A DNA stretch of 64,000 nucleotides from a virus, in the IMG/VR virus record IMGVR_UViG_3300007513_000007, positions 1-64,000 of that record; one strand, written 5' to 3'. The notes under the pieces are model-generated. The model was given only the letters and a program-made list of their open reading frames with translations, was not told the origin of the DNA and did no database searches. The stretch's first letter is position 1, and every line of letters starts with the position of its first letter. Shown here in pieces: positions 2,223-52,054 of this stretch. The position numbers and the translations under genes were made by a program.

Positions 2223-4562
2223 CTACTCTCCGCAGGCTTGGGAGATTCGGGTGGCAAACATCGTGTTCCGCTGATCTGCCTTGGCGTTTTGAACAGCCGA
2301 AGCAATCGCGGAAGCCTTGCCTACCAGCACCACCTTCTCTTTGGCACGGGTGATCGCGGTGTAAAAGAGGTTGCGCTGAAGCTGCCGACCGAAAGAGGGG
2401 ACAACCGGCATCACGATCACGTCGTACTCCTGCCCTTGGGATTTGTGGACCGTCTGTGCGTAGGCCAGTCGAAGGCGAGAGACAGCATCCTTGAACGCAA
2501 ACCGAACATGACGCGGAGGGGTCCCAGGCATCCCGTGGATCTTCACCTCGATTTCCCGAGCCTTGCGGTCAATCCGTGCGACCTTTCCAACATCCCCGTT
2601 GTACACGTCCAACCCATAGTCGTTCCGAACCACCATCACACGGTCATCCTCTCGAATCACCTCACCCCCCAGCCGAACCTCGACCAGCCCAGCAACACCA
2701 GGATTCAAAGATGACCGGATACGGTCGTTCAACGCAGTCACCCCCACAGAACCAGCATGGCGTGGGGAAAGGACTTGGAAGTTGGCCCTGCGCTTGTACA
2801 AACTGGCCGCCAGTTCCACGACGTAGTCAGCGGCTTCGTCGTCCGTGATCTTGGACACCAGCACGAAGTCTTTTCCGTCACTGGTGGGGACATCCCCCCG
2901 GTGAACCGCATGAGCGGCCAAGATGATTCCACTGGTATCTTCTTGTCGGAAGATAGTGTCCAGATGAGATACCGGGAACTGGGCCGAGGACACAATCTCA
3001 CGAAGAACATCCCCAGCGCCAACGGAAGGCAACTGGTCCGAGTCTCCAACGAACACAAGCCTGCAATCGGGGTCTGTTCCAGAAAGGATTCGATACAGAA
3101 GATGTTGGTCCAGCATGGAAGACTCGTCGCAAATGACGACCTTGGCAGGATGGGTGTTCCCCGGCCCGTAGTCCCACTTCTGCTTTGAGGCGTCATCCCC
3201 GACCCCTCGTTCAGAACTCTCCCCCACAACTCCGACGTAGGTGGCCTCCCTTCCACCAGCAATCTGAACGTCCTTGGCTCCAAAGGCCCGGTGAACGGTG
3301 GATGCCGGTGCCCGTGCCACAAGCGCCATGCGCTTGGCCGCGATGCCAGTAGGAGCACAAAGAAGGAAGGGGATATGCGTGTCGCGCAGAACATCGACCA
3401 CCGCCTGAAGGGTGGTGGTCTTCCCGGTGCCGGGGAGTCCGGTAAGAACCGAAACAGGGGCCGTAAGAGCACGCAGGGCGGCTTCTCGCTGGGCTTCAGT
3501 CAAGGTGACCCTGCTGCCCGCAGACCAATCCCTCAACGCCCCAGCAGCCACCCTACGAAGAGATTCTTCGGAGGCATCCTCCACCCGCTTCCGTTCCGCT
3601 TCAGCAGAAGGGCCGAACTGGCCAAAGCCATCCAGGATCTTCTCCAAAACCGGCTCTGGAGGAAGGACCCTCGCAGCCAAAAGCTCCGCTGATTCACACT
3701 CCATAGCGTGAAGGCCAGGGTCGTAGAGGGCAAAGCCTCCCCCACTGCGCGGCTCTGCAACCAAGTCTCCCTCACCCTTCATAACAACCAGGGCCTCTGT
3801 GATGAGCTTGGCGTTATCAACCACCTCGGGGACCAGGGCGCTTACATGAGACACCACCTCAACGGAGGTGGCGAAAAGGTTGCCGTTGCGGGAGCAGTCT
3901 TGAATGGCGCTCATGATCGCCCCGCAGATGCGGCGTTGGGACGACATATCGACGCCCAGCTTGCGAGCCACTTCATCTGCTTGGGAAAACTTGACCCCCC
4001 TTACACGAACAAGGGACCAAGGATCTGCGAGGAGGCGCTCCTCCACCCCGACGCCAAAAGTCTTCCAAACAAGACCCACGGATCGGGAAGAAATGCCAGC
4101 CTCTCCCATGAGGCGCATGGCGTCCATGTAGACGCGAAGGCTCTGCCATCGAGAAGCAACGAACGTGCAGGTGAAGTCATCCAACCCTGATTCACGGAGA
4201 GCCTCTTCGCCTTTATCAAGAACTGAAGGAAGGGACTCGCCGTAAAACCTCTCCAACAGGGCGCATGTTCCCGCGCCTATGCCTTGGGAAGCCAGGGCTG
4301 AAAGACAAGAGGTGAGGTTCCAGCCAGGGGTTGAGGCAGGAGAACGGATTGCATGAAGCTGGTCCCCGTAGGTTTCGTGCTTCTCCCACTTCCCATCAAA
4401 GGAGACCCACGACCCAATCGACAGGGGGCCGAAGTTCCCCTTCACTGAAACAGGGCGGCTGTGCGGACCTTCATCCAAGCTCACCCGAAGCACAAAAAAC
4501 CCAGCGTTCTCGTAAACGATAGAGGTGACCCGACCACTACATGGCACAGCCTTCCCCATCAA
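2223..4562 (-). CDS. recD2: RecD2-like SF1B helicase
   Basis: N-terminal OB/HhH region, Walker A GLPGTGKTT, CAPTGIAAKR, ICDESSM, VGDSDQLPSVGAG, AYAQTVHKSQGQEY, LFYTAITRAK. Confidence 0.93.
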   Translation of the reverse strand: MMGKAVPCSGRVTSIVYENAGFFVLRVSLDEGPHSRPVSVKGNFGPLSIGSWVSFDGKWEKHETYGDQLHAIRSPASTPGWNLTSCLSALASQGIGAGTCALLERFYGESLPSVLDKGEEALRESGLDDFTCTFVASRWQSLRVYMDAMRLMGEAGISSRSVGLVWKTFGVGVEERLLADPWSLVRVRGVKFSQADEVARKLGVDMSSQRRICGAIMSAIQDCSRNGNLFATSVEVVSHVSALVPEVVDNAKLITEALVVMKGEGDLVAEPRSGGGFALYDPGLHAMECESAELLAARVLPPEPVLEKILDGFGQFGPSAEAERKRVEDASEESLRRVAAGALRDWSAGSRVTLTEAQREAALRALTAPVSVLTGLPGTGKTTTLQAVVDVLRDTHIPFLLCAPTGIAAKRMALVARAPASTVHRAFGAKDVQIAGGREATYVGVVGESSERGVGDDASKQKWDYGPGNTHPAKVVICDESSMLDQHLLYRILSGTDPDCRLVFVGDSDQLPSVGAGDVLREIVSSAQFPVSHLDTIFRQEDTSGIILAAHAVHRGDVPTSDGKDFVLVSKITDDEAADYVVELAASLYKRRANFQVLSPRHAGSVGVTALNDRIRSSLNPGVAGLVEVRLGGEVIREDDRVMVVRNDYGLDVYNGDVGKVARIDRKAREIEVKIHGMPGTPPRHVRFAFKDAVSRLRLAYAQTVHKSQGQEYDVIVMPVVPSFGRQLQRNLFYTAITRAKEKVVLVGKASAIASAVQNAKADQRNTMFATRISQACGE

Positions 4563-5059
4563 TCCCCCTCTCCCAAATATGACTTGAGGCTCTCCAAAGT
4601 GGAGGTCATGTCCCCTGCCTGTTGAAGCAAGGACTCCAAGTCAGCCGTCTCGGAACTACCCGTCGGACGTTCTACGCTAACCCCCGTAGTGACCAAATAA
4701 ACCTGCGCTCTGTGGCCCTCCAGGGGCGAAAAGAGAACCTGGGACTCCCCCACAAACCATTTACCCCCTCTACTTTCGAGGACCCCCTCCAGGAGTTGGC
4801 GGTGTAGCCACTGGGCATCCTTATTGTGGCCAGCAGGACACATCCCCGGAGGCCACAGGCAGGCACCCCCTCCAGGAAGGAGCGTGTTGGGAGGGGTGAG
4901 CGGTGTGTGGTGGACCATCAACTTCACAGCGCGGCCTGACAGTTTCTCGAAGATGTCGTCCAACGGGATGGGGTCTTCCCCGTCTGGAAAAGCAGTGGGA
5001 AGCGTGTCCCCCTCCATGACACGGAAGATGCCCCCGGCGATAGCAACAATGAAGTCCAT
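4559..5059 (-). CDS. hypothetical protein
   Basis: Start trimmed to MDFIVAI (ATG 5059); the stop overlaps the recD2 start. Confidence 0.6.
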   Translation of the reverse strand: MDFIVAIAGGIFRVMEGDTLPTAFPDGEDPIPLDDIFEKLSGRAVKLMVHHTPLTPPNTLLPGGGACLWPPGMCPAGHNKDAQWLHRQLLEGVLESRGGKWFVGESQVLFSPLEGHRAQVYLVTTGVSVERPTGSSETADLESLLQQAGDMTSTLESLKSYLGEGD

Positions 5060-5097
5060 ACAGCGTAGTACCCCCCAGAAAAGAAAAAGTACCCCCA

Positions 5098-5131
5098 GGG
5101 GGTTCCCCTCCGACGCCACCCCCGTAAGGAG
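5098..5131 (+). promoter_or_regulatory. class-A phage promoter
   Basis: GGGGGTTCC-16 nt-CGTAAGGAG, upstream of ATG 5175. Confidence 0.75.
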
Positions 5132-5174
5132 AACAAGAGAAAAACCCGCACTGCTTGCAGTCACGGAGGACCCC

Positions 5175-5600
5175 ATGAACGAACTTTCCGCAAACAACGT
5201 CATCAGCTTCGCCAACTCACCCCGCGAGGGCCGCCGCAAGGGCGCAACGATGACCGTGGTGAATGACGCCACGGGTGGACGGGTGACCGTTCGCTTCCGT
5301 AAGCCCAAGGGCTTCAACAGCGTCCTGGTGGACGTGATGACCGGCTCCGACAACGAGGAGCACTTCAGCTTCCTCGGCACCCTCCGGGGCGAGCAGGTTG
5401 TCATCAGCCCCAAGAGCAAGGCTGGCGACAAGGGCCAACGCGCCCGGACCATCCTCAACTGGACGTTCGCTGCTGCTGGTCGTGATGACCTCCGCACCGT
5501 CCGGTGCCTCCACGAAGGTCGCTGCGGTCGCTGTGGCCGGAAGCTGACGGTGCCCGCGAGCATCGACAGCGGGCTTGGCCCGGAGTGCCGAGGCAAGTGA
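5175..5600 (+). CDS. DUF6011-like zinc-binding protein
   Basis: C-terminal CGRCGRKLTVPASIDSGLGPEC; GGAGGA RBS before ATG 5175. Confidence 0.75.
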   Translation: MNELSANNVISFANSPREGRRKGATMTVVNDATGGRVTVRFRKPKGFNSVLVDVMTGSDNEEHFSFLGTLRGEQVVISPKSKAGDKGQRARTILNWTFAAAGRDDLRTVRCLHEGRCGRCGRKLTVPASIDSGLGPECRGK

Positions 5601-6391
5601 GCCTTCGCATCGAGCACGAAGAAGGGGAGCCTCGGTTCATCCAAGGCATCCCCAACCGCCCCCAAGAGGAACTGCGCCAACTGGTGTCAGACCTTCTCTC
5701 GGGGGCCGCTGTGTCCAGCGACCAAGTACCCCCCAACATGACGGGCATGGTGTTCCTGCCTGTTGCGATGGGAGCCTTCCAACCTCCAGAGGAACTGCGA
5801 AAGGCAGCGATGGGGTCTGCGGGGCCTCCAGAGAGGTTGGAGGAAGACCCCCCAAGGCCAGAGCACCCCGGATACCCCGAAGGTCCTGGGGACCCTCCAG
5901 AGAAGCCTATGCTGGATGTTGTGAACCCCCAACTCCTCAAGGATGTAGAGTGGGGAGAGGTGGATGATGAGGCGCTAATGGAAGCCCAGTCCCGCCTCAA
6001 AGAAGCGAACAACGCCCGCATAGAGGCATGGGACAAGGCGACCCGAGAATGGGACGAAGCCCAAGAAGCCAACGACCGAGAGCGCAGACGGATCGACACC
6101 GAGTACAGGGAAGCCCTGGCCTCATGGGAGGCGAGCCTGGACCCCCACAAAGAGAAGGTCGCAGAGCGCAAACGCCTTCACGATGAATGGGTGACGAAGC
6201 ATGACCGCATCTTTGGCCGATGGGGCGAAGAAATGGGCGCTCTTGTCGGTTGGGTGAAGGATGCCTTCCCCCGAGGAGTCAACGGATACCCGATGTTCTA
6301 TAGCGTCCAGGTCGTCAACAATGACGACTGGAAGCGAGTGCGGGCAGCCCTGGAACGAGAGCAAGAACGCCGCAAAGAGATCGAGGTTTAG
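5597..6391 (+). CDS. hypothetical Pro/Glu-rich coiled-coil protein
   Basis: GTG start overlaps the upstream TGA; C-terminal FPRGVNGYPMFYSV motif. Confidence 0.65.
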   Translation: MSLRIEHEEGEPRFIQGIPNRPQEELRQLVSDLLSGAAVSSDQVPPNMTGMVFLPVAMGAFQPPEELRKAAMGSAGPPERLEEDPPRPEHPGYPEGPGDPPEKPMLDVVNPQLLKDVEWGEVDDEALMEAQSRLKEANNARIEAWDKATREWDEAQEANDRERRRIDTEYREALASWEASLDPHKEKVAERKRLHDEWVTKHDRIFGRWGEEMGALVGWVKDAFPRGVNGYPMFYSVQVVNNDDWKRVRAALEREQERRKEIEV

Positions 6392-8424
6392 CTCTGAACA
6401 GCAGCTTCCATCGACAGCTTGTCGAAGTCGATCTCACAGGCCCCGCCCACACAAGCAAGCTCCCGAGCACCTTCCCCCATGTCCTCTTTTTCGTAGTCCA
6501 CCAGAAGGTCATAGTTGATGTCCGGGAAGTCGTAGACCCGACTCTCAAACTCTTCCTTGGTGATCTCCTCGTAAGGAGCAAGGTCATACTTGTGGTCGTC
6601 ATAAGGCAAGAAGCTCAACCCAGTGACAGCATCGAAGTTCTCAAAGAGCCACTCACCTACCTCGTCCCACTCGTGCTCACGGACGTACACCGTGGCTGAC
6701 TGGTTGTGGCCTCGAACCGAACACCAAGTATTCATGACATGGAGATAGCGCCGAAGCTGCATCAAAGCAGACTCGTGGCTCCGCACCATCGCCCCTTCAG
6801 GCGACTTGACCGGGAACTCCACAACCCAAGTAGGACACTCCGCATCAGGAGTGTCCTTGTACTGGTTATCCTTGAAAACAGGTGCGCCTGAATCACGAAC
6901 CAGATGGAAGAGCGGGTCGTTAGCCGAGATGCGAACCCGACGGATGTAGTAGGGCGCATACCGAGTGTGAAAGCCACTGGCGCAATCGACAAGCTGGCTG
7001 GAGTTCCCACTGGGCTTCCCACAAGTGATGGAAGCAGGCATGGGCATGTCAAACCACGCTGCCGCCACGGCGGCAGTCTCGCGAGCAACGGCATTGAAAT
7101 GCTTGAGGGCTTCCGGGTCGCAGGACAACTCGGGATTGTCACAATGCCCTGTGATGTCCACGCCCAACAGCCGGTCCTCTTCACAGTGCTGGGACCATGC
7201 AGGACGGAGGTAGGGGAAGTTCGTGAACGTGGCCTGAATCGCGCCAATCCAAGTAGCCGTCCGAATCTTTCGAGAGAAAGATTCAACGGTATCTCCAGGG
7301 CGCATGATGGCCGCACTCAAGTTGCAGAACTGGCCGCCGCCACCTTCGCCGGTCCAGGGGTCGGTGCTCTTGGCGTACCGAAGCAGGATTTCCCCACAGG
7401 GGTTCGAGCGGCAGTCCGAACGACGCTCTGACCGCTTGGCGACAGGAAACATGAAGAACCCCCGCTCACCCGACCCGCTGTTACGGAGAGCTTCCCACTC
7501 CTTCAGGAACTCCTCCTTTCCAGGCTTCTGCTTCCAGAAAGCAGAGAAGTTGGCCATGTACCGACAGGTAGGGAAATCCCCTTTGCTCCAGTCCTTGGCG
7601 TGTCGCATCTCTTCGTCGTCTGGGTCGCTGAAGCAGATCAACGCAGCACGTCGGACACCGCCAGCCATGACGATTTCTCCAACCATGCAGGCAATATCCG
7701 AGGCTTCCACAGAGGAGAGAGGACGGCCTGAAGCAGCATCCAAAGTTTCCTGGCAGAAATCCAAGAGACGACGAAGAGGATCCGGTCCTGAAGCACGGCC
7801 TCCCTTCGTCACCAGACGAGCACCGGCAGGCCGGATCTGGGAGTAGTCGAAATCAACCGTGTCGCCTTTCCACATCATCGTCAGACCATCAAAAACCGCA
7901 TTGGCCCAGCCCTGGGTGCTGTCTTCGATGGTGTACTGGGTCGTGTGTCCAGTGCGAGGGGAAACATCCGGGAGGTTATTCACGAACTCGCGCTCGACGC
8001 TGTAGCCCACGCCTGTGCCCATCATCAGAATGTAGAGAAGCTCGCTGAAAGAACGAAGCGAATCCAAAGGGATGAACGCACAGTTGTAGAACATGGTGTT
8101 GTCACGGGCTGCCGCTGGTCCTGCGGCCCACAAAGCACGCATAGAAGGAAGGGCATCAAACCGAAGGATGGAATCACGAATATCGTTCAACACCGGGGCA
8201 GGGATATTCCGGCAACTACGCAGAAACCCGACATATCGGTCTACGGCCTCCTCCAATGTCTCCCGACGGCCCTCCTCTTCCCGCCATCGCGGATACGTCC
8301 GAGTGAACACAAACTGGGAAAGCGCATTTGGGAACCCTTCGATTGGCTCTGCGGCTTCCGTCTCCGTCCCAACGGGAAAATGAGCAAGTGACAGTGGTTG
8401 GGAGGCGGTGACATCGGGGTTCAT
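6388..8424 (-). CDS. nrdJ: class II (adenosylcobalamin-dependent) ribonucleotide reductase
   Basis: FTRTYPRW...RRET, PSMRALW, YNCAF, catalytic NPCGEI, QFCNLS, TCGKPSGNSSQL, C-terminal redox pair ACVGGACEI. Confidence 0.93.
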   Translation of the reverse strand: MNPDVTASQPLSLAHFPVGTETEAAEPIEGFPNALSQFVFTRTYPRWREEEGRRETLEEAVDRYVGFLRSCRNIPAPVLNDIRDSILRFDALPSMRALWAAGPAAARDNTMFYNCAFIPLDSLRSFSELLYILMMGTGVGYSVEREFVNNLPDVSPRTGHTTQYTIEDSTQGWANAVFDGLTMMWKGDTVDFDYSQIRPAGARLVTKGGRASGPDPLRRLLDFCQETLDAASGRPLSSVEASDIACMVGEIVMAGGVRRAALICFSDPDDEEMRHAKDWSKGDFPTCRYMANFSAFWKQKPGKEEFLKEWEALRNSGSGERGFFMFPVAKRSERRSDCRSNPCGEILLRYAKSTDPWTGEGGGGQFCNLSAAIMRPGDTVESFSRKIRTATWIGAIQATFTNFPYLRPAWSQHCEEDRLLGVDITGHCDNPELSCDPEALKHFNAVARETAAVAAAWFDMPMPASITCGKPSGNSSQLVDCASGFHTRYAPYYIRRVRISANDPLFHLVRDSGAPVFKDNQYKDTPDAECPTWVVEFPVKSPEGAMVRSHESALMQLRRYLHVMNTWCSVRGHNQSATVYVREHEWDEVGEWLFENFDAVTGLSFLPYDDHKYDLAPYEEITKEEFESRVYDFPDINYDLLVDYEKEDMGEGARELACVGGACEIDFDKLSMEAAVQS

Positions 8425-43189: not shown

Positions 43190-43224
43190 GGGGGGTTCCC
43201 GCTCGGAGCCTCTCCCGTATAGAG
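43190..43224 (+). promoter_or_regulatory. class-A promoter facing a non-coding region
   Basis: GGGGGGTTCC-16 nt-CGTATAGAG. Confidence 0.75.
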
Positions 43225-43225
43225 G

Positions 43226-43905
43226 TCAGCACAGCGAGACACCTCGCTGGTAAGTCTCAAGTCCTTGGTCTTTGTTGACCCTGACTGGAAGTGCTGGCTC
43301 ACATGGGACGTTCGAGATCGAAACCATGCAGCGCGGACGGATACGGAGAGAAGACCAGGGCAACCTCTTTGACATTCAAGTAAGTGTTTTGAGTAGCGAT
43401 CCGTATGGTCAGGGGTAAGGAAACGACCCCTCTTGGTGAGTTAGAGTCTCATCCGGTTCAAAGTAACCGAAGGGCGAATCGAGAGCAGCCCGACCCTCTA
43501 TAAGTGCCGCGCAACCCGTGACGAGCGGGGGAGGGTGCGGATTGAAGGTTCCTGTGGCGGTCGCGAACGTCACAGAAGCACCTTGGGGCGGGAGCCTCAA
43601 GGGGAACAGAAGCACGGCCCACTCTGTGGAGGCCATATCCAGGTCAGAAGCAGAGCGTCGTGTTCTACTCAAAACCCTTACTTGAATGCCAAGGAAACGC
43701 ATCACCAATAGAGCCGTTGATCCGCTTGATTGCGAGTAAAGGACCCCGCCAGGGGTCAGACGGTCATGTTCTCGGACGAAGGGTGATGTAGCGAGACAGC
43801 CTGCCGAGATTCAGGTCCTCGCTTCCCTTGGACCTCGGACATATTCTGTCCGGGTTCCATAAAATCGCCCCTCTGGGGGTGTACAAGCCCGATTCTGTGA
43901 TAAGA
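43226..43905 (+). ncRNA. large structured ncRNA candidate (ROOL-like/unclassified)
   Basis: About 680 nt with no credible gene; long-range helix 43373-43396 with 43665-43688 (23/24 complementary); more than 10 local hairpins, several with GNRA loops; own promoter. Ends are approximate. Confidence 0.65.
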
Positions 43906-43917
43906 TTTATTTCGAGA

Positions 43918-43952
43918 GGGGGGTTCCCCACAGTTCCTCCCTCCGTATTGAG
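43918..43952 (+). promoter_or_regulatory. class-A phage promoter
   Basis: GGGGGGTTCC-16 nt-CGTATTGAG. Confidence 0.75.
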
Positions 43953-49582: not shown

Positions 49583-50208
49583 GGGTCCAGCAACGTGACT
49601 ATGCACCTTCCCTCGAAGGTGGTTCCGATGGGGAAGTTGACTCCATCATTCGGGTTTTGGATGAAGAACACGAACTGGGCAGGCGTAGGCCCAGAGGCCG
49701 CGACGTATGTAACGGAGCAACCCGCGTCGATAGGGCCGATCCCCGTGGAGGCTGAAGCGCCTCCGATTTTGTCGATGTTCCCAGACTGGAGGGTTTCATC
49801 GGTGGCGAAGACGTACTCTCCGATTTCACTGTTGCTGGTGCCTTGGGCCTTCATGTGGACCGTGATTCGACCGCCTACGAAGTCTGAAGCAGTGTAGACG
49901 AGCACCTCGATGTTTTCTTGGACCGCTGTGGAGGTCGTATGGGTGAACTGCTCGCAGAACACCCTGCCGCAGGAGTACACCGAAGCCAACTGATGGACTT
50001 CTGCCCACTGGCGTTCCGTGCCTGGGGTCCCGTCCCCGCTGTGCCCCAGGTTCCTGGTGAGGTTCGCGTCTGGAGTGAGGTCCGATGCGATTGATGCTGT
50101 GACCTCAAGGGTGTCTGTTGCCTCATCGTTCCCGATGGTCATGCTTCCAGGAACATCCAGGTGGTCGATGTCGATCCCGATAGCGTCAGTGATCAATACT
50201 CTGGGCAT
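49579..50208 (-). CDS. probable virion (fibre-like) protein
   Basis: SDLTPDANLTRNLG....W.EVH fibre-type motif with a beta-rich C-terminus; in a late-type operon. Confidence 0.45.
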   Translation of the reverse strand: MPRVLITDAIGIDIDHLDVPGSMTIGNDEATDTLEVTASIASDLTPDANLTRNLGHSGDGTPGTERQWAEVHQLASVYSCGRVFCEQFTHTTSTAVQENIEVLVYTASDFVGGRITVHMKAQGTSNSEIGEYVFATDETLQSGNIDKIGGASASTGIGPIDAGCSVTYVAASGPTPAQFVFFIQNPNDGVNFPIGTTFEGRCIVTLLDP

Positions 50209-50825
50209 CAGGACCTCATAGACCAGCGTAGAGCCACGCTGGCAGCATTAGGGGTGGAAGCCCAGCGCCGAGTCGGATGTCTGCGCCGCCCCCGTGGCTT
50301 TATGGGATTGCGCGGGGGCTTCCTCCGACCGGATTTATCCGTCCAGGAACTCCCGGAGTTGGCGAAGTTGTCTCGCATGTATTTCTCGGCGGCTTCTTCC
50401 GACATGAATGGCCCGTAAGAGGACATGTCCCCTTCGATCTGGTAGCCATCCTCGTCTTCTTGGTAGTCCTCATTATCGACGTACCACTTGCCGTCTGACG
50501 CCTTGTAGAACTCCCGCTCGGTGTTGGTGCTTCCCTTTTTCTTTTTCTTGATCTTGCCCTTCCAGTAGGACTTCGCATCGGAGCGGGCATCAGGGGATTC
50601 TTTCTTGTTCTTCTGACGCCAACCGGGCATCTGCCAGTCAGCAAGGCCACCGCAAAAGGCACCAGGGTTGCTGATGTTGTCGGTCATCTTCTCGATGCAG
50701 TCCCAGACCTTGTGTTCAGGCGTGCCTTTACCCAGCGTCTTCCAGAACTTCTTGACGGACTTATCCGTCCATCCCGGAGGGAGGTTCTTCCATTTCTTGG
50801 CTACGCGGGCAGCGGATGGCTTCAT
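50208..50825 (-). CDS. tagged protein
   Basis: MKPSAARVAKKWK...CIEKM..ISNPGAFC; second segment after KKKKG. Confidence 0.65.
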   Translation of the reverse strand: MKPSAARVAKKWKNLPPGWTDKSVKKFWKTLGKGTPEHKVWDCIEKMTDNISNPGAFCGGLADWQMPGWRQKNKKESPDARSDAKSYWKGKIKKKKKGSTNTEREFYKASDGKWYVDNEDYQEDEDGYQIEGDMSSYGPFMSEEAAEKYMRDNFANSGSSWTDKSGRRKPPRNPIKPRGRRRHPTRRWASTPNAASVALRWSMRS

Positions 50826-50880
50826 GGGATTCCTTCCCCCTTCCGAAAGGATAGGAACCTTACCGTGCCCCAAATAAGAG

Positions 50881-51646
50881 AGGGGGCCACCCTTTCGGAT
50901 GACCCCCTCATGAGGGAACAAACAAGCACACATGCACTTGCTCCCAGCCGTGACCTCCAAGCCTTTTGAGCCTGTCCCCGTTCGGGTTAGGAGTGTGAAC
51001 ACCAGCAAGTAAAGCTGTTCACGACGTTCCTCCCTGTTCTTCGCAGTCTCCTACGACGGAACAGCACGCGATACTGCTGCCTACATTCTGTGTATCGGAG
51101 GGTAAGCTGTACACTTCTCCCTTCCTCCACACGACAACCTTTGATCTCTTGGGAAGATCGCCACTTGCCCCCTTTCGGGACGGTTGCCAGATTGCTCTGA
51201 CAACCAGAGAGGCTTCTGCATTCAGCAGTCCGATTCTGGGGAACAACCCCCTTCCCAAGACTTTGTTCTTGGTTATTGCCCTGCAACCGTTTCCTCAGTG
51301 AATCAGCAAGTCCGAGGATGCCCTTCGCAGCACTCCGACAGTGGAATGTCGGCTCATGCTCTGGACCACTGGGTGATTCTCGGAGCAACCACGCTCCATA
51401 ACTCACCCCCCTTCATAGTCAGGCGGCAGAGTGTGTGAACACCCCTTTCCTGAACAGGGTTCTGGCTACCTCCCGAAGGAGCCGACGACCCGGCAAGGGT
51501 ACGAAGGTTTTAGGACCCGTCAGCAGGGTCCACTCGCCACCCCTGCAAGCAGGAGCTTTGAGATTCGTTGAAACTGTAAAAGAACTATGCCGCTCTATGG
51601 TGACGGCTACCTGTTTTTTGGCGCTCTGCCAGTCATCAATGACTTG
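50881..51646 (-). ncRNA. large structured ncRNA candidate (GOLLD-like)
   Basis: About 770 nt with no credible gene; more than 15 hairpins including UUCG- and GAAA-capped stems; class-A promoter at 51651-51683 points into it; closing stem at 50882-50907. Ends are approximate. Confidence 0.65.
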
Positions 51647-51650
51647 TAAC

Positions 51651-51683
51651 CTCTACGCGGTCACACTACCAAGGGAACCCCCC
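51651..51683 (-). promoter_or_regulatory. class-A promoter facing a non-coding region
   Basis: GGGGGGTTCC-16 nt-CGTAGAG, embedded in the 3' end of the SWIM gene. Confidence 0.7.
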
Positions 51684-52054
51684 CTCAAAACCTTTTCTGC
51701 ATTTTTCAACGCACGCCACGCAGGACGGCCCTTCTTCTCGATCCAACGGTTAGCGACAGCAATAACATGCTTGCACGCTCCAGCACGCCCGTGGTCGGGG
51801 CACGAGCAGCTATGCCGACGTACCGCGTTCCGGTCGATGCTGATGGTCACCATGTAGTCCTGACGGCCCCTACAGAGAGCACGGAGGCCATGCTGACCAT
51901 CCCTGGCCCAAACGATATGGACACCGCTTGCACGGTACACGCGGCCAGTCTCGGACACCTTGATGAGTGCCCGCAGCCCACGCCCACGGTCTTCGACCTG
52001 GGAGATAGCCCACAAGAGGGACTCGGCTGCGCTCTTGGTGATGGTTCCTTTCAT
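51653..52054 (-). CDS. SWIM zinc-finger protein
   Basis: HSCSCPDHGRAGACKHVIAV; GGAGG RBS before MKGT; promoter variant at 52071-52103. Confidence 0.8.
   Translation of the reverse strand: MKGTITKSAAESLLWAISQVEDRGRGLRALIKVSETGRVYRASGVHIVWARDGQHGLRALCRGRQDYMVTISIDRNAVRRHSCSCPDHGRAGACKHVIAVANRWIEKKGRPAWRALKNAEKVLRGGSLGSVTA

Follow-up and report, generated by a model that had tools for sequence, protein, structure and literature searches.

Between a SWIM zinc-finger gene (51653-52054, minus strand; PF04434 confirmed) and a downstream gene for a 205-aa protein (50208-50825, minus strand, ATG at 50825) lies a gap of 827 nt without a single convincing ORF, which raises the question of whether this locus encodes a large structured RNA and, if so, whether that RNA belongs to a known family, the initial annotation having proposed a GOLLD-like non-coding RNA of about 770 nt on the minus strand. 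The stretch of DNA analysed here (the window, 64,000 nt) is the first 64 kb of an IMG/VR record of 180,576 nt (G000) with an estimated completeness of 40%, and contains genes encoding a large terminase, a portal protein, a ribonucleotide reductase and a helicase. The terminase has 57% identity to that of LR745208.1, an uncultured 485-kb phage, and 59-75% identity to those of about 39 IMG/VR contigs of up to 316 kb; since these terminase relatives are huge-phage contigs, the RNA locus is taken to sit in the genome of a huge phage. Judged by the terminase (TerL), the nearest cultured relative is Tunturiibacter phage Tunturi_5, with an identity of only 28%.

Regarding coding potential, the stretch assigned to the RNA (window positions 50872-51647, minus strand, ~775 nt) has no conserved reading frame. 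Its longest ORF (50987-51406, 139 aa) begins with GTG, is not preceded by a Shine-Dalgarno sequence and occupies a frame that is not conserved. This ORF, those of 119-124 aa that overlap the region in the homologous record G002, and the tblastn matches of these ORFs between homologues, as any conserved DNA would give, could suggest a decayed or unusual protein-coding region, or a small conserved ORF as the real function; however, the substitutions between the window and G002 show no periodicity by codon phase (45/48/41), four 1-nt indels break the frame, stops are found in all frames and at differing places, and stretches of 49-65 identical nt are interspersed with blocks of compensatory change, all of which leaves a coding function hardly credible. 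Conservation of the region is patchy, with identical blocks of up to 65 nt in the comparison of two sequences and up to 49 nt in that of four alternating with heavily changing blocks, and at the nucleotide level the RNA is conserved more strongly than the terminase gene (window versus G002: ~81% identity for the RNA core, 67.5% for the terL gene and 70% for a neighbouring gene). The minimum free energy fold of the single sequence (-344.9 kcal/mol) is more stable than that of shuffled sequences (z -3.8), but as the opposite strand also outperforms its shuffles (z -3.55) the single-sequence fold alone proves little.

Regarding transcription signals, a class-A promoter within the end of the SWIM gene had been proposed, and a copy of this motif (GGGGTTCC-N16-CGTA) does overlap the SWIM stop codon (51681-51654, minus strand). 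The motif occurs 17 times in the window, where 0.34 copies are expected, and as 29 exact copies across the 180-kb record, most of them 9-70 nt ahead of a Shine-Dalgarno sequence and ATG, which fits a promoter with a short leader. Within the window it stands before non-structural genes, typically 20-25 nt 5' of the ATG. The copy next to the RNA and just two others of the 29 have no ORF behind them, and transcription of the RNA probably starts at about 51647, a few nucleotides past the motif. At the other end, the closing stem that the initial annotation had placed at 50882-50907 is retained as 50880-50909 and was recognised by a terminator scan as part of an intrinsic terminator with a UCUUAUUU tail; the stem covaries in two homologues (L097 and L110; A-U to G-C and G-C to C-G), and in all homologues it leads into a U-rich tail. 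Thus, the motif at the start and the terminator at the end delimit what appears to be a self-contained unit of ~775 nt that carries signals for both start and stop. A second motif, class B (CGGT-N7-CTAT; nine copies in the window against 0.68 expected), lies between the terminator and the ATG of the 205-aa gene and may serve that gene. Several class-B copies precede head genes (18972, 21610 and 23797), and the two motifs look like two promoter classes of the phage.

The other two class-A copies without an ORF lie elsewhere in the record. One exact copy (43192-43219, plus strand) precedes a second ORF-less unit (43192-43950), which has no Rfam match and, over 43220-43910, no similarity to the large RNA, to G001 or G002, or to any of the homologous or related loci compared. 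The third copy lies beyond the window (84976-85003, minus strand), is not followed by any ORF of 60 aa or more in the next 400 nt and may drive another non-coding unit.

Homologues of the RNA were found by several routes. The 297-kb record G002 contains a copy with 82% identity, located elsewhere in its genome than the relative of the 205-aa gene; an exact-word scan of metagenomes yielded two further sequences (L033 and L023) together with identical copies of the G002 type from other samples, one of them in a 552-kb contig, and L097 and L110 came from another word scan, the matches of which were filtered with a central-domain covariance model. Including the window there are six distinct sequences, which are 77-94% identical over ~710 nt. 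Homology begins at AGUUCUUU (window position 51586) and ends with the terminator stem, and the flanks are unrelated. In G002 and L023 the conserved core begins only ~10-15 nt past the promoter-like motif, and a motif consisting of a G-run, N19-21 and GTA is present 10-60 nt upstream in five of the six sequences. In L110 a repeated GAGAGTTGGAACACC motif precedes the RNA instead. The hallmarks of a putative independent transcription unit, namely a promoter-like motif, a terminator and conservation independent of the flanks, are all present.

The neighbouring genes of the RNA differ in all five contexts, the exception being the small SWIM protein gene upstream of it in the window and in the G002 type (L009:491-859, plus strand). 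The two SWIM proteins have 32% mutual identity, the genes downstream differ between both loci, the SWIM gene is absent from the L097, L110 and L023 loci, and a search for related loci with the SWIM protein confirmed none; its upstream position may be a remnant of synteny and not a sign of functional linkage. No conserved neighbour protein was found near the RNA when one was sought across the RNA loci. In L110, genes encoding a patatin-like phospholipase and a fatty-acid hydroxylase lie just upstream of the RNA (4891-6455, plus strand).

These contexts bear on the possibility that the RNA is a long cis-acting leader, an attenuator or riboswitch-like element controlling the 205-aa gene through the terminator. 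The RNA does lie directly upstream of this gene on the same strand, and its terminator could in principle be regulated. However, the downstream gene differs in every homologue, relatives of the 205-aa gene elsewhere are found without the RNA (it is absent from loci L002-L008, where the gene forms a section of far larger proteins), an alternative anti-terminator pairing was not observed, and the 205-aa gene has an enriched promoter-like motif of its own past the terminator. Since the downstream genes differ and the gene has its own promoter motif, a cis-regulatory role is considered highly improbable.

The distribution of the RNA was surveyed in related records with blastn (28 huge-phage records) and with two covariance models (32-34 records). 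The model R1, built from domain B (Table 1), scores 168-197 bits on the homologues, and R2, for domain C, scores 177-189 bits on four virus records. One copy each was detected in four of 34 related records (G000, G002, G032 and G033), while the RNA was absent from the other 30, among them three relatives with a completeness of 93% or more; given these absences, the RNA must be dispensable. Outside this group, no match to the RNA was obtained by blastn against 50,697 GenBank phage records, a 19-mer from the RNA was not found in 185,579 prokaryote genomes, and exact-word scans with the 16-mers GTAGGCAGCAGTATCG and TTCACACTCCTAACCC returned only the known copies and chance matches in coding DNA. 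No description of such an RNA was found in the literature on huge or jumbo phages. The distribution suggests that the RNA is an accessory, moron-like unit of one huge-phage clade.

Covariation analysis, which had been proposed as a check of the candidate, supports a conserved fold. In the alignment of six sequences, 97.5% of the cells of 214 consensus pairs are paired, compared to 91.4 ± 0.5% in shuffled alignments, and 53 of these pairs show changes on both sides with pairing kept, compared to 26.0 ± 3.1 in shuffles, none of 500 of which reach 53. At least one compensatory pair is present in 22 of the 32 helices, and in the alignment of four sequences there are 40 compensatory pairs against 17.1 in shuffles. 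The counted structure was predicted on the same alignment; a control in which the partners were slid by 1-3 columns gave only 3-9 compensatory pairs and, like the shuffled control, argues against circularity. The six sequences are all at least 77% identical and come from a single phage clade, so that the compensatory events are few and partly inherited together. Regarding the strand, there are 138 cells with G·U against one with A·C, and the opposite strand would be only 82% paired, which shows that it is the minus-strand RNA that folds; the same asymmetry rules out a DNA cruciform. With its homologues, covariation, G·U asymmetry and conserved terminator, the gene-free candidate on the minus strand is therefore upheld.

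The resulting anatomy of the RNA is summarised in Table 1.

Table 1. Features of the RNA locus in window coordinates, listed in the direction of the minus strand.
Feature	Position	Strand	Description
Class-A promoter-like motif GGGGTTCC-N16-CGTA	51654..51681	-	Overlaps the SWIM stop codon
5' leader, variable	51590..51647	-	This phage only; not alignable between homologues
Conserved core, ~707 nt	50880..51586	-	AGUUCUUU to the end of the terminator stem; six sequences
Span within putative long-range helix P1	51026..51585	-	51578-51585 (GUUCUUUU) with 51026-51033 (GGAGGAAC)
Domain A, run of covarying hairpins	51238..51531	-	Helices 4-15; 27 pairs with both-side changes; most helices 100% paired
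Domain B, multi-helix junction	51069..51232	-	Helices 16-23; 14-bp closing helix, 51217-51232 with 51069-51085
GNRA-capped hairpin (GAGA/GAAA)	51034..51064	-	Helix 24; 4 pairs with both-side changes; 100% paired
Domain C (51025-50947) and next hairpin (50914-50945)	50914..51025	-	Helices 25-31
Intrinsic terminator	50872..50909	-	13-bp GC-rich stem, GAAA loop, then UCUUAUUU; terminator scan
Class-B motif CGGT-N7-CTAT	50851..50865	-	Boundary marker outside the RNA, between the terminator and ATG 50825

The putative helix P1, which encloses domains A and B, is predicted by RNAalifold in the alignments of two, four and six sequences and is nearly invariant, so that covariation speaks neither for nor against it; several other long-range helices never vary. 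The fold of the first 70-250 nt shifts between the predictions from four and six sequences, and helices 2 and 3 are weak (86-90% paired). In domain A, the nested stem at 51371-51408, which the initial annotation had already recognised, is kept with six compensatory pairs and contains the internal loop UAUG/CGAGA, which is invariant, lies between covarying helices and looks receptor-like. Two further invariant loops of this domain, GUGG (~51389) and UUCCAC (~51343), are mutually complementary, and because of this invariance and complementarity a loop-loop pairing between them is inferred. Of the other stems drawn from the single sequence, those at 51513-51531 (as 51514-51531) and 51335-51352 and the UUCG-capped stem near 51465-51483 (as 51470-51481) also recur in the consensus, and several of the initially drawn stems covary across the six homologues.

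In domain B, hairpins are capped by GCAA and GAAA loops, and GAAGCCUCUCU forms an invariant single strand; the helix that closes the domain has a single exchange, U-A to C-G, which occurs in L097. The stem CGAUAC/GUAUCG formerly placed at 51069-51097 is specific to the window, as the 5' arm in the homologues is CGGAGC or CGAAGC, and its 3' arm belongs instead to a conserved long-range helix, 51223-51232 with 51069-51079. A possible, weakly supported pseudoknot may connect a 13-nt loop at ~51305 (UUGCU) with AGCAA at ~51195, with one compensatory change. The junction of domain C carries the hairpins CAGC/GCUG, GUG/CAC, CCC-GNRA-GGG and CAGGCU-CAAAA-GGCUUG, and the GGCUCAAAAGGC hairpin (50958-50974) is kept in the homologues. 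The previously proposed stem at 50995-51022 is retained as a candidate, with a competing alternative pairing of bases that never vary.

Regarding known RNA families, the whole window gave no match to Rfam 15 (4227 families) at gathering scores. At E <= 10, cmscan of 50600-51900 against Rfam 15 returned only two sub-threshold or fragment matches, neither of them GOLLD or ROOL: BjrC68 sRNA, rejected as the match covers only the terminator hairpin (24 bits, with 39 needed), and a fragment of the Moco riboswitch, likewise rejected. The homologues did not match any Rfam family either. A likeness to conserved regions of RNase P (AAAGUC... / CAGAAUCGG...) was dropped, no RNase P model matching at E <= 10. 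The GOLLD model (RF02032, gathering score 150 bits), with which the resemblance noted initially was to be checked, gave no match at E <= 10 anywhere in the 180-kb record, and the same was the case for the ROOL model (RF03087, gathering score 99.1 bits); in the ROOL search the control genomes were silent too, so the cmscan with the whole library is the stronger test.

A divergent GOLLD or ROOL RNA would share the similar size (~0.75 kb), the phage origin and the high degree of structure of the present RNA, and GOLLD has a variable 5' end and conserved 3' two-thirds (bioRxiv 10.1101/2024.12.08.627333), which the RNA recalls, its leader and first ~70 nt of core varying between subgroups and the rest being conserved; this is, however, a general pattern that is not specific to the GOLLD 3' domain. 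One homologue, that in L110, also abuts a tRNA gene: a tRNA-Asn gene (7442-7517, minus strand) converges on the terminator of the RNA. It is the only tRNA gene beside the RNA in six loci, none having been detected in the 64-kb window, where ARAGORN was used, or at four of the five other homologue loci, and the RNA is thus not generally associated with tRNA arrays, in or beside which GOLLD and ROOL are frequently located. Neither RF02032 nor RF03087, nor any other Rfam family, matches the stretch or its homologues, and the element CCGAUAC...GUAUCG, named as GOLLD-like in the initial annotation, is not a conserved helix. Membership in either family is therefore regarded as extremely improbable, and an assignment to GOLLD is not supported; the resemblance is of kind only, that of a large multi-domain phage-borne RNA.

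Compared to GOLLD, the RNA is likewise a giant (~0.8 kb for GOLLD), intricately folded phage or prophage RNA that would be expressed as its own unit, and its division into a variable 5' and a conserved 3' part may be comparable; it differs in the missing covariance-model match, in the lack of a tRNA-island link save for the one tRNA in one homologue, and in its hosts and phages, being found in a clade of uncultured phages of 150-550 kb. For GOLLD, assembly into a nanocage is reported. Like the present RNA, ROOL is a large ornate RNA of phages and prophages for which no protein partner is known, and it is rich in GNRA-type loops and pseudoknot candidates; it is, however, ~580 nt long and found near tRNA genes, whereas the present RNA measures ~720-775 nt and the window contains no tRNA gene. 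OLE and raiA RNAs share a length of >200-600 nt, multi-domain folds supported by covariation and highly conserved junction nucleotides; unlike the phage-borne and narrowly distributed RNA described here, they are chromosomal, occur in Gram-positive bacteria and have known protein partners or phenotypes.

The sporadic occurrence of the RNA among relatives and its different genomic position in each phage might also be explained by mobility of its own, as a selfish or catalytic RNA such as an intron remnant, a self-cleaving or other ribozyme or a mobile-element RNA, and highly conserved junction nucleotides are typical of catalytic cores. Against this, no intron, ribozyme or omega/HEARO model in Rfam matches, the RNA does not split a gene, the SWIM frame running to a stop codon of its own, genes for a transposase, reverse transcriptase or homing endonuclease are not among the immediate neighbours, and the ends of the unit coincide with the promoter-like motif and the terminator. 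A selfish or catalytic origin is considered very unlikely.

The reading preferred here, with a probability of roughly 0.8, is that the locus is an autonomous gene for a structured, trans-acting RNA of ~720-775 nt representing a new, uncatalogued family; the conserved core of ~707 nt is longer than 500 nt, non-coding and folded into several covarying domains, as is characteristic of large ornate structured non-coding RNAs. As judged from the motifs, the RNA would be transcribed from the non-late class-A promoter at ~51647, end at ~50872 and act in trans as a compactly folded molecule. The invariant junctions and loops (the GNRA loops, UAUG/CGAGA and GUGG/CCAC) may form a tertiary core, which would bind a partner during infection: a protein, an RNA or further copies of itself.

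GOLLD and ROOL multimerise (bioRxiv 10.1101/2024.12.08.627333). Within the new-family reading, an RNA-only multimer like GOLLD or ROOL is doubtful; a role as the RNA part of a ribonucleoprotein is a tentative possibility with slightly more in its favour, and a ribozyme is unlikely. Equally as doubtful as the GOLLD- or ROOL-like multimer is a protein-free giant phage RNA of early or mid infection, either a multimer with a fold unrelated to GOLLD and ROOL or a new large ribozyme.

Structured non-coding RNAs longer than ~500 nt are rare, and to our knowledge nearly every class of large non-coding RNA that has been studied is a ribozyme, the core of a ribonucleoprotein or, more recently, an RNA-only nanocage. 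The RNA has defined ends, a map backed by covariation, six natural variants and no detectable relation to catalogued families; these ends, map and variants make it directly accessible to in vitro transcription, native sizing and cryo-EM. Its presence suggests that the large RNAs of huge phages extend beyond GOLLD and ROOL, and alongside the ORF-less unit at 43.2-43.9 kb it would be a second case in which this promoter class of the phage drives a non-coding unit.

Regarding the downstream gene, the 205-aa protein has no match in Pfam or PHROG. Its first ~100 residues are 72-82% identical to the N-termini of proteins of 515-850 aa in related phages (L003:3983-6535, L005:3992-6187 and L008:4001-5548), its C-terminal part has matches in other contigs (L006 and L007), and the protein gives the impression of a modular one that has been shuffled or split. 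Upstream of its relative in L005 there is a gap of ~600 nt (3385-3991, plus strand) without a plus-strand ORF of at least 60 aa, the sequence of which is unrelated to the large RNA of the window.
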